From assembly GCA_000004695.1 (NCBI GenBank), contig CM000154.2, forward strand, positions 4,704,001-4,768,000: DNA of 64,000 nt, given 5' to 3'. The position numbers and the translations under genes were made by a program. This DNA comes from Dictyostelium discoideum. Lineage: Eukaryota. Positions 57,288-60,544 of the stretch are shown piece by piece. The notes beneath the pieces were generated by a model, which saw nothing but the letters and a program-made list of their open reading frames with translations, was not told the origin of the DNA and made no database searches. Each line of letters starts with the position of its first letter. Positions within the stretch are counted from its first letter, which is position 1.

Positions 57288-57340
57288 CAGATATTTTTGA
57301 TGGTTTTTAATAATTAATCAAAAAATTGATTAATAACAAG

Positions 57341-59212
57341 TTGGTGTATATTTACAACAACCTACACCTTTACATTCAAATAAACGAATTGTTTCATTTT
57401 CAAGGTATGTACAACTCTTACCTGTTTTTTCACAATCAAGATCACGACATACTAAACAACCTTCTTCTAAATCATATGGTGGTGGATCAGCTGGTAATGG
57501 AGTTGGGGTTGGTCTTGGTGGGACAGTGGTTGGTGATGGAGTTGGAGTTGTAGTTGGAGTTGGGGTAACGGTTGGAGTAACGGTTGGTGTAACAGTTGGG
57601 GTAACAGTTGGAGTAACAGTTGGGGTAACAGTTGGAGTTACAGATGGAGTTGGAGTACAAATGTATGTTGGAATACATACACCATTTTCACAATATGAAA
57701 AAATGCATGGATCAGTGCTTGTACAATTAATAGGGTTTATTAAACAAGGTGGGTTCCCTCTTGGATTACATTCCCTTGGGAAGCATAAATCATTTGTAAT
57801 ACAAGTATCTACAGCATTACATGCATCACAATTATCAAACTTATCATAATAACAACCTATAGCTGGATCACAATGATCAGTGGTACATGGATCATTATCA
57901 TTACAATTTTTTGGAATTGCAAGACAACCAAAACCTATTTCACAACTTTTAAAAAAAAAAACAAATTAATTAATTAATTTTACTTTTTTTTTTCCAAATA
58001 ATTTAAAAAACTATTATTGAAAATAATTAAAAATATATTTTGAATAAATACATACGATTCTACTAAACATTTGTCATTAGTAGTGTTACATATCTTATCA
58101 ACAAATTCACATTGGTAATTATTATCTGGACCACATGCTTGTATTAAACATGGGTTAATAGGACTTTCGGAACATTGGTTAACCATACAACACTAAATTT
58201 TTAAAAATTAAATTTTGATTAATAAAAACTGCTTTATTTAAAAAAAATAAAAAATAAACTTACAGTATCATTATGACCATCACAACTGTATATATAATAA
58301 AAAAACCAATGTATTAAAAGATCTGATCAACTATTTTATTAATAATTTTATTATTATTATGTGGGGGAAAAAAATACTTACACTCCACAAGCATCATAGG
58401 CTGAACATGTGAAATTTAAATTGGTAATAATATTTAAAGTTGATTGTGATGTATGTCTTTCACAATAAAAGAAATCCCATGGATAACTTTGGCCAACTGT
58501 CAAACCTAAATCATCCATATTAACAGTTCTTGATGCTGCTGTATGAATACCACCAATATCAATTCTTAAAACATCATCAAAGAATACCCATACATCATCA
58601 TCTCCTGAAAATGTAAAATATTCACCACCATGATATGTAAAACTAAAATATAGCAAATTATTAATAAAAAATTATTAATAAAAAATTATTAAATTATTAT
58701 TATTTTAAAACTTACCTATAATGAATTTTCATACAAAAATGGAAATTATGACCCAAATAATGTGGTTCATTTGGATAAACTGTTGAATTATCGAAACCAT
58801 TACCATCAATTGGAAAGAATGAATTGCTTTGGTAGGCATATGTGCTATCACCAACCCTTGTTAAAGTGAGATCATATGGAATTGGGACGTTAACTTTTTA
58901 AATAATAATAATAATGAAATTAAAATTAACAATTTGTTTTTTAAAATTTAGTAAAAAAAAATATTAATTATTATATATACATACCACCTGGAACACTATG
59001 GAACCAAGAATAAAATGTCGATTGGTTGTGAACTACGATTCTACCATTTTCAGTTACTGGAGAATCACCACAGCAATAAACTGGTGTACCATCAGCACCC
59101 AAGTCTGGTTGAACAATACCTTCAACTACACCATTATAATAAGTTTCAATTTCGAAATCAGCTATAATTTATTTAAATAATTTAAAAATTAAAATATTTT
59201 TTAATTTCATTA

Positions 59213-59244
<32 letters not shown>

Positions 59245-59296
59245 AAAAAAAAATATAATAAAAATAATTTTAAAATTATATATATATGACTTACGA

Positions 59297-59329
<33 letters not shown>

Positions 59330-59636
59330 TATTAATAAATATATTAAAAAATAAAAAAATTTGAATTAGTATTGAATATTTCTATTTTTTTTTTTTTTTA
59401 AAATAAAAAAAATAATCTAAAAAATACTTACAATAGGAGATTCATCATAAATTGTTGCTGAAAGAACAATAGAGTCTGGTTGACCTTGTGAGAAACCCTC
59501 TTTAAATGTAAAAAATTTAATAGTTTATATGTTAATATATTTTTTATTTTTTATTATATAATAATTTTATTAAGTTTAATTTTATTTTATTTACCCTTAT
59601 ATAAATTACTTAATAAAAGTATTAACAACAAATATG
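57341..59636 (-). CDS. Secreted PA14-domain protein with Cys-rich repeats and a Thr/Pro-rich linker (psi/PsiA-like family). At least 9 exons, including 7-nt and 22-nt micro-exons.
   Basis: Signal peptide [19 protein letters not shown]14 core ..[63 protein letters not shown].. Cys repeats [30 protein letters not shown].. and [42 protein letters not shown].. A (TPTV)n linker. C-terminus ..[10 protein letters not shown]. Most donors are GTAAGT. Exon order on the minus strand is about 59636-59585, 59506-59438, a 7-nt exon near 59300, 59165-58978, 58867-58690, 58617-58394, a 22-nt exon near 58250, 58193-58060, 57955-57341. Confidence 0.75.
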
Positions 59637-60544
59637 AATATTTCATATTGTTTTTTTTTTTTGTTTTTTTATAATAATTAATAATATTATTAATTGTTCT
59701 TTTTTTTTTTTTTTTTTTTTTATAATTAAAAATCAATTTATTTCTTTTTTTAATAATGTTTTCCAATTTTTAAAAAATGTTTTCCAATTTTTAAATATTC
59801 ATATAATGTTACTATAAATATATAAATAATATTGATTTTTATTGTGTTTTATTTATTAAATGTTCATATGAAACAAATAAATTATTATTTTTTTTTTTTT
59901 GTTTTTTTTTTTTTTATTTGTTTGTTTTTTTTTTTTTTTTTTGTTTTTATTAAATATCTTTTTATATATAATTATTTCTCATTTCAATAAAAAATCATAC
60001 CCCCACTTTTGTTTTACAAATTATAACTATAAAAATTAATATTTAACATCCACTACAAAAAAAAAAAGTAAATAAAAGGGGTTTCATATGGACTGTCACT
60101 GCTTTCAAAAATTTAAATTAATTTGTAAAAAATAATAATTTATAATAAACTTATTTTTTTATTGTAATTGTTTTTTAAAAAAAAATAAAAAATAAAAAAT
60201 AAAAAATAAAAATAATAATAAAATAATAAAGTAAAGTTAATTGGAGAAAAAAAAAAATATATATTAATAAAATTGAAAAATATAGTAAAATTAAAATTAT
60301 TATGAAAATAATTAGAGCTTTAGTTTAATTATAACTTTATGATTTATTTATTCTCACATTAACATATTTTATTATATTTATTTTTTTTTTTTATTTTTAA
60401 TTTTTTTTTTTTTGGTTTTTTTTTTTTTTTTTTAAAATTTCATTTTTTTTATTTTTTTTTTTATTTTTTTTATTTTTTTATTTTTTTTTTTTTTTTTTTT
60501 TGATCTTCTCAATATTAATATTATAAATATCATAATAAACAACA

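Follow-up and report, generated by a model that had tools for sequence, protein, structure and literature searches.

We analyzed a stretch of 64,000 nucleotides (nt) of Dictyostelium discoideum chromosome 5 DNA (contig CM000154.2, positions 4,704,001 to 4,768,000), in the following called the window, whose content of guanine plus cytosine (G+C) is approximately 22%. On its minus strand a gene was found between positions 59646 and 57330, the exon chain of which was rebuilt base by base from the sequence. A model with nine exons joined by GT-AG splicing gave an open frame of 505 amino acids (aa) (Table 1). All eight introns are bounded by GT and AG, range from 71 to 133 nt and contain 4-19% G+C; the exons contain 29-38%, save for the signal-peptide exon 1 (15%). 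Two of the exons comprise only 7 nt and 22 nt, respectively. The gene is almost certainly psiD (DDB_G0290925), because the dictyBase identifiers of psiD and of the neighboring gene etfA are adjacent. The public annotation of the D. discoideum assembly GCA_054883475.1 contains a minus-strand gene whose ends correspond to window positions 57330 and 59646 and whose product likewise has 505 aa. Across the gene, the sole difference between the window and this assembly is a poly(A) run at 59236-59240 within intron 3, where the window has five additional A; further small insertions and deletions were seen in the adjoining intergenic DNA. A preliminary description of this region had already recognized the gene and placed its coding sequence at 59636-57341, about 10 nt off at each end. 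It had also assigned the signal-peptide exons to the same gene, which was corroborated by the start of the public gene call at the ATG base of exon 1 and by the conservation of this exon in the orthologs. In three species 41 of its 52 positions are identical, and the same first exon of 52 nt is found in the orthologs and in the D. purpureum gene 47551.

Table 1. Features of the psiD region in window positions (a slash marks an exon boundary).
Feature	Position	Strand	Remarks
Exon 1, 52 nt	59595..59646	-	ATG at 59646-59644, signal peptide; ends in phase 1, donor GTAAAT
Exon 2, 68 nt	59432..59499	-	ends in phase 0, donor GTAAGT
A26 homopolymer, 3' end of intron 2	59303..59328	-	directly before acceptor G at 59302; without polypyrimidine tract
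Exon 3, 7-nt micro-exon AGAAATC	59295..59301	-	flanks AAG/ and /GTAAGT; Arg41, Asn42 and first base of Pro43 (RNPDFE)
Exon 4, 177 nt	58985..59161	-	(P)DFEIETYY...SVPG(V)
Exon 5, 178 nt	58716..58893	-	fibro-slime/PA14 region begins
Exon 6, 261 nt	58382..58642	-	PA14/fibro-slime core (GDDDVWVF...YCERHT...); ends ...ACG(V), phase 2, donor GTAAGT
Exon 7, 22-nt micro-exon TTGTGATGGTCATAATGATACT	58264..58285	-	flanks CAG/ and /GTAAGT; (V)CDGHNDT of CGVCxGxNDTCC
Exon 8, 137 nt	58056..58192	-	first Cys-rich repeat
Exon 9, 616 nt including TAA at 57332-57330	57330..57945	-	Cys-rich Dicty_CTDC-like repeats, Thr/Pro linker, C-terminal Cys module
12-nt tandem repeat, 7.8 copies	57558..57650	-	(TPTV)n, mucin-like linker; length and sequence differ among species
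54-nt GTAAGA..AAAG segment, proposed optional intron	57368..57421	-	coding, flanked (G)...(G); removal in frame
Single-exon open reading frame, 1366 aa	53036-57136	+	poly-Asn/Gln-rich, without Pfam domain; convergent with psiD
etfA	60545-~61960	+	divergent from psiD

Both small exons had been proposed in the preliminary description. The 7-nt sequence AGAAATC with its AG and GTAAGT flanks and the 22-nt sequence TTGTGATGGTCATAATGATACT followed by GTAAGT are indeed present, and their conservation in orthologs and homologs identifies them as genuine. Only their positions had to be corrected, as they had been noted at 59296-59302 (1 nt off) and 58241-58262 (about 23 nt off). The predicted messenger RNA (mRNA) reads GATGAATCTCCTATT-AGAAATC-CTGATTTCGAAATTG across both junctions of the 7-nt exon and GCTTGTGGAGT-TTGTGATGGTCATAATGATACT-TGTTGTATGGTT across the 22-nt exon, and the model protein contains ..SPIRNPDFE.. 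and ..CGVCDGHNDTCC.. across these junctions. An alignment of 12 homologs yielded the consensus sequences ..SPxRNPDFE.. and ..CGVCxGxNDTCC.., in which P39 and most positions of CGVCxGxNDTCC are invariant or nearly so; R41 is nearly invariant (at least 90%) and Asn42 is replaced in three sequences. Even the bacterial fibro-slime proteins, which have no introns, contain P-D-[FM]-E without exception, and the Pro of this motif is the codon that is split at the exon 3/4 junction.

The orthologs of D. citrinum and D. firmibasis disclosed the same two exons. The 7-nt exon reads AG/AGAAATC/GTAAGT in D. citrinum and AG/AGAAACC/GTAAGT in D. firmibasis, the single change being synonymous, while the 22-nt exon is found in frame as TAG/TTGTGATGGTCATAATGATACT/GTAAGT and TAG/GTGTGAAGGTAATAATGATACT/GTATGT, respectively. 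Three-way identity amounted to 6 of 7 positions for the smaller and 19 of 22 for the larger exon, compared to 27-46% with large gaps for the surrounding introns. After transfer of the exon boundaries, open frames of 527 aa (D. citrinum) and 512 aa (D. firmibasis) were obtained, and the annotated product lengths at the three loci (505, 527 and 512 aa) are the lengths resulting from the micro-exon model. The expectation that most gene finders would overlook exons of this size did not come true. When each inter-exon gap was shuffled 200,000 times, neither a 7-mer with codons for Arg and Asn plus a C between AG and GT nor a motif-encoding 22-nt exon emerged. The micro-exons are far beyond chance expectation. 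We also noticed that intron 4 of the D. citrinum ortholog contains an (ATA)n/(AATAA)n microsatellite expansion of approximately 400-500 nt, the whole D. discoideum counterpart having 91 nt.

According to the preliminary description, the reading frame was kept only if the micro-exons were used, which was overstated. Enumeration of all GT..AG paths that contain either one internal exon or none revealed four frame-keeping paths at each micro-exon junction, the micro-exon path and a direct splice included. At the first junction, the direct splice GTAA/GTATTT (donor at 59427) would lead to ESPIVT-DFE, one residue shorter, and at the second junction GGA/GTGTAA (donor at 58384) would lead to ACG-CCMV, eight residues shorter; the mRNA junctions would be GAATCTCCTATTGTAA-CTGATTTCG and GCTTGTGGA-TGTTGTATGG. 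It might be argued that the micro-exons are unused, that the mRNA arises from these direct splices at shifted donors, and that the AG..GT islands are coincidental. Both direct paths leave the frame open, and the shifted GT that lies within GTAAGT automatically occurs in each of the three species. However, the products would have 504 or 497 aa instead of the annotated 505, with the same mismatch in both orthologs, and perfect GTAAGT donors would be bypassed in favor of GTATTT and GTGTAA. In addition, the invariant Pro would be replaced by Thr, the nearly invariant Arg would be replaced as well, and the conserved VCxGxNDT would be deleted. The conserved islands of 7 and 22 nt and the outcome of the shuffling experiment would be left unexplained. 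We consider this explanation exceedingly improbable. The other frame-keeping paths have weak donors and lose conserved residues, and all of them apart from one with a 24-nt exon at the second junction disagree with the annotated lengths.

Skipping of either micro-exon via the consensus sites results in a frameshift and an early stop codon, and therefore their inclusion is obligatory. The early stop would also suit a regulatory role, in which skipping serves as an off-switch through premature termination and mRNA decay and restricts psiD to prespore cells or late development; the strong stage specificity of the PsiD protein (PMC12821622) is in line with such a switch. Against it stands that no evidence for skipping of either micro-exon was found, that stage specificity in Dictyostelium is ordinarily transcriptional, and that cassette-exon skipping is, as a general point, uncommon where splicing uses intron definition (PMC2397502), so that we regard regulated inclusion as very unlikely. 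Constitutive use of both exons is strongly favored: with high confidence, the nine-exon structure of psiD as a whole is correct, and the 7-nt and 22-nt exons are genuine, constitutive, and obligatory for a functional product.

Some points weigh against this interpretation. The gene model was derived from sequence comparison; junction-spanning peptides are absent from the proteome supplements, which give data at the protein level only, and the exon coordinates of the public annotations were deduced from the lengths of their products. At the second junction, a 24-nt exon (58330-58307) with the weak donors GTGTAA/GTTTTT gives the same protein length; product length alone would permit this exon in D. 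discoideum because the lengths are equal, and it is excluded by conservation alone. The name psiD is based on adjacency of dictyBase identifiers rather than on a sequence match. Finally, intron definition and ordered intron removal, which are invoked below, were inferred from general knowledge.

Near the 3'-end of the gene, a segment of 54 nt bounded by GTAAGA and AG had been described as a possible retained intron and placed at 57445-57392, 24 nt off. The segment exists and its removal is in frame, yet a retained-intron isoform is contradicted by the loss of the acceptor in the sister species, where the AG is replaced by CAT/GGT (D. citrinum) and AAT/GGT (D. firmibasis). The three species can be aligned without gaps over the segment and share 40 of its 54 columns (74%), a value within the range of the exons (61-86%) and above that of the introns (27-49%). 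It encodes GKSC.Y.EN......C, the two Cys of which are conserved across the wider family, and the annotated products retain it. The variable sites are distributed 5/4/5 over the codon positions, which is uninformative with three species. As judged from this conservation, the segment is constitutive coding sequence with a chance GT..AG inside the last exon. An exitron, spliced from a fraction of the D. discoideum transcripts and producing a shorter C-terminus, would have a reasonable donor (GTAAGA occurs in 2 of 66 family introns), an AAG acceptor and an in-frame length; the mRNA junction would be GAAAAAACAG-GTGTAGGTTGTTG. Such splicing is highly unlikely nevertheless. Apart from the acceptor missing in both sister species, the donor is altered to GTAAAG in D. 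firmibasis, and with 54 nt and 27.8% G+C the segment is shorter and more G+C-rich than each of the 66 family introns (56-673 nt, 3.8-23.1%). Its removal would cost the two family-conserved Cys, the annotated products include the 54 nt, and comparable segments occur by chance, since exon 9 alone harbors 61 GT..AG segments of in-frame length between 40 and 200 nt.

The product of psiD is predicted to be a secreted psi-family protein composed of a signal peptide, a fibro-slime/PA14 carbohydrate-binding domain, Cys-rich repeats, a Thr/Pro linker of the O-glycosylation type and a C-terminal Cys module. Its assignment to a secreted PA14/Cys-rich gene of the psi family in the preliminary description was borne out by matches to Pfam PA14 (PF07691; 34.7 bits, cut-off 24, residues 156-250) and NCBIfam TIGR02148 Fibro_Slime (121.7 bits, cut-off 45, residues 150-237), and by the best database relatives, which are psi-family proteins (D. 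purpureum 47551, 54% identity; D. discoideum psiC, 48%). The hydrophobic N-terminus, a putative signal peptide, can be seen in the sequence and is kept in the orthologs. The score for Dicty_CTDC (PF00526) was 23.9 bits, slightly short of the cut-off (27); the Cys spacing aligns with that of homologs with a precomputed annotation as PF00526. The linker repeat encodes (TPTV)n in both D. discoideum and D. firmibasis; in D. citrinum it is (TPTE)n and expanded, and the change from Val to Glu throughout this array looks like concerted evolution. PsiA, a prespore-inducing factor, and PsiF/DicA, a quorum factor, are the characterized psi members (PMC4931340; PMC12821622). PsiD was detected late in development and is listed as prespore-expressed (PMC12821622). 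By family membership and these proteome data, the protein would be a matrix or signal component secreted in the prespore lineage.

The N-terminal part of PsiD resembles bacterial fibro-slime proteins (TIGR02148), with which it shares 41-45% identity over approximately 210 aa and the invariant motifs P-D-x-E, GDDDVW and ERHT. Unlike psiD, the bacterial counterparts have no introns, Cys-rich repeats or Thr/Pro linker. The similarity is compatible with an acquisition of the fibro-slime domain by an old lateral transfer. The PsiD N-terminus is nearly as close to many bacterial or metagenomic fibro-slime proteins as to some dictyostelid paralogs.

Downstream of psiD lies the large open reading frame of 1366 aa, an exact copy of which is present in the D. 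discoideum assembly GCA_054883475.1, and upstream lies etfA, whose exon beside the gene is 100% identical to etfA of strain AX4. According to the supplements of PMC12821622, etfA is DDB_G0290927, and DDB_G0290925 is psiD, a 'PA14 domain-containing protein'. The psiD orthologs of D. citrinum and D. firmibasis are syntenic, as they are situated between the large open reading frame and etfA, and the position of the former relative to psiD is kept in both species. In D. purpureum the psi gene is missing at the syntenic position. Plus-strand open reading frames across the gene region were rejected as antisense artefacts of the TP repeat. A search for RNA features did not disclose any transfer RNA or Rfam match in the gene region on either strand.

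The preliminary description regarded exons as small as those of psiD as rare. This does not apply to the family: micro-exons are frequent in the psi subfamily, where 16 of 73 sampled exons (22%) have 35 nt or less. When the proteins of six homologs were mapped exactly onto the genomes, there were exons of 14, 18, 21, 24, 25, 26, 29, 32 and 35 nt, and a D. firmibasis paralog with 21 exons contains exons of 18, 20 and 22 nt. The micro-exon structure of psiD is already known, being part of the public gene models for three species, and it is typical of the family. We also considered whether unusually strong donors mark the micro-exons; GTAAGT follows 7 of the 16 exons of up to 35 nt and is found among 21 of 66 donors overall, which was unconvincing.

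At the site corresponding to the psiD 7-nt exon, paralogs contain an exon of 14 nt, (S)PARN(P) in psiC, or of 25 nt, which ends at the same phase-1 site. The upstream intron of psiD is located 7 nt further 3' than that of psiC, giving micro-exons of 7 nt and 14 nt, respectively, and two D. purpureum paralogs lack this upstream intron. When the introns of nine genes, which represent six paralog lineages, were mapped onto the protein alignment, 42 positions were obtained, a number that would be lower if alignment-gap offsets were merged (intron 1 of psiD and of the D. purpureum genes is probably one site). Most of these positions are not shared between paralogs and often lie only a few codons apart; around CGVCxGxNDTCC alone, at least seven different positions were counted. 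Only one position, that of the phase-1 intron within the Pro codon of NPDFE, is common to all mapped psiC/psiD-like genes of group-4 Dictyostelium. A more distant D. firmibasis paralog is devoid even of this intron. The psiC/psiD-like group-4 genes have 8 to 20 introns each, compared to one in the P. violaceum homolog, and by span arithmetic on an N-terminally partial model the A. subglobosum homolog has room for at most about 150 nt of intron sequence, which would correspond to about two introns at the most.

This intron pattern looks like heavy lineage-specific gain, or differential loss. In group-4 Dictyostelium, the PA14 genes resembling psiC and psiD may have experienced a burst of lineage-specific intron gain, a tentative reading of the intron map to which we give slightly less than even credence. 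With intron gain, the 7-nt exon would be an extreme by-product, formed when a new intron landed 7 nt upstream of an older one. If such a burst occurred, the psi family would offer a natural system in which recent intron gain could be studied, together with the splicing of micro-exons in the absence of polypyrimidine tracts. The near-complete turnover of intron positions between psi paralogs may be of interest to workers on intron evolution.

The micro-exons probably arise from the crowding of introns into conserved motifs. The 7-nt exon would be enclosed by a phase-0 intron specific to the lineage and by an older one in phase 1, which splits the invariant Pro codon of RNPDFE. Each of the short, extremely AT-rich introns may be recognized as a unit, a mode known as intron definition and described in general terms elsewhere (PMC2397502). 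Recognition across the intron is probable because in Dictyostelium the introns are short and differ strongly from exons in composition. Neighboring introns would then be removed one by one. Once the first flanking intron has been excised, the 7 nt would be fused to an exon of normal size, and the second intron would become an ordinary one. Under intron definition exon length should not be limiting, and the 7-nt exon would need no exon-spanning complex. The acceptor of this exon consists of a tandem AG-AG (AAG/AG/AAATC, 59295-59303) following the A26 run, and the same AG-AG is present in D. citrinum and D. firmibasis. The first AG must be used because splicing at the second, 2 nt downstream, would leave an exon of 5 nt and shift the frame.

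Taken together, the preliminary description had correctly reconstructed by hand a gene model that already existed and had guessed wrongly at a terminal intron, and as such it was of limited importance. By this analysis, a 7-nt constitutive exon is documented as conserved across three Dictyostelium species. For the psi family, splice-aware mapping and gene prediction must permit exons of 7-35 nt. A literature search for Dictyostelium micro-exons yielded no dedicated study, only a TopHat parameter line (PMC5295588): in this published D. discoideum pipeline the micro-exon search was switched on and the minimum intron length was 70 nt.

Compared with known genes, the closest system is the D. discoideum psi family (psiA-psiR). 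Its members, specifically psiD and the paralog psiC (DDB_G0290245), have the same domain order as the gene described here, namely a signal peptide, RNPDFE/fibro-slime-PA14, CGVCxGxNDTCC, Dicty_CTDC-type Cys repeats, a Ser/Thr/Pro linker and a C-terminal CxxC...CC..PTC[YF]. Our gene and psiC are located on the same chromosome, and the 14-nt micro-exon of psiC ends at the same phase-1 site, but psiC has 13 exons instead of nine and only a single intron position in common with our gene. Nothing distinguishes the gene from psiD itself.

Micro-exons are also found outside Dictyostelium. A 7-nt mini-exon of troponin I was reportedly described by Sterner and Berget in 1993, and plants possess conserved micro-exons of up to 15 nt as well as the 9-nt mini-exon of potato invertase. 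Like those of psiD, constitutive micro-exons elsewhere are very short, have canonical flanks, encode conserved residues, are required for the reading frame, and are easily mis-annotated. For vertebrate micro-exons, exon-bridging or enhancer mechanisms have been described, which are not established for Dictyostelium. Unlike the other micro-exon systems, psiD belongs to a genome with short introns of more than 90% A+T, and its 7-nt exon follows an acceptor that is preceded by a run of 26 A and not by a pyrimidine tract.

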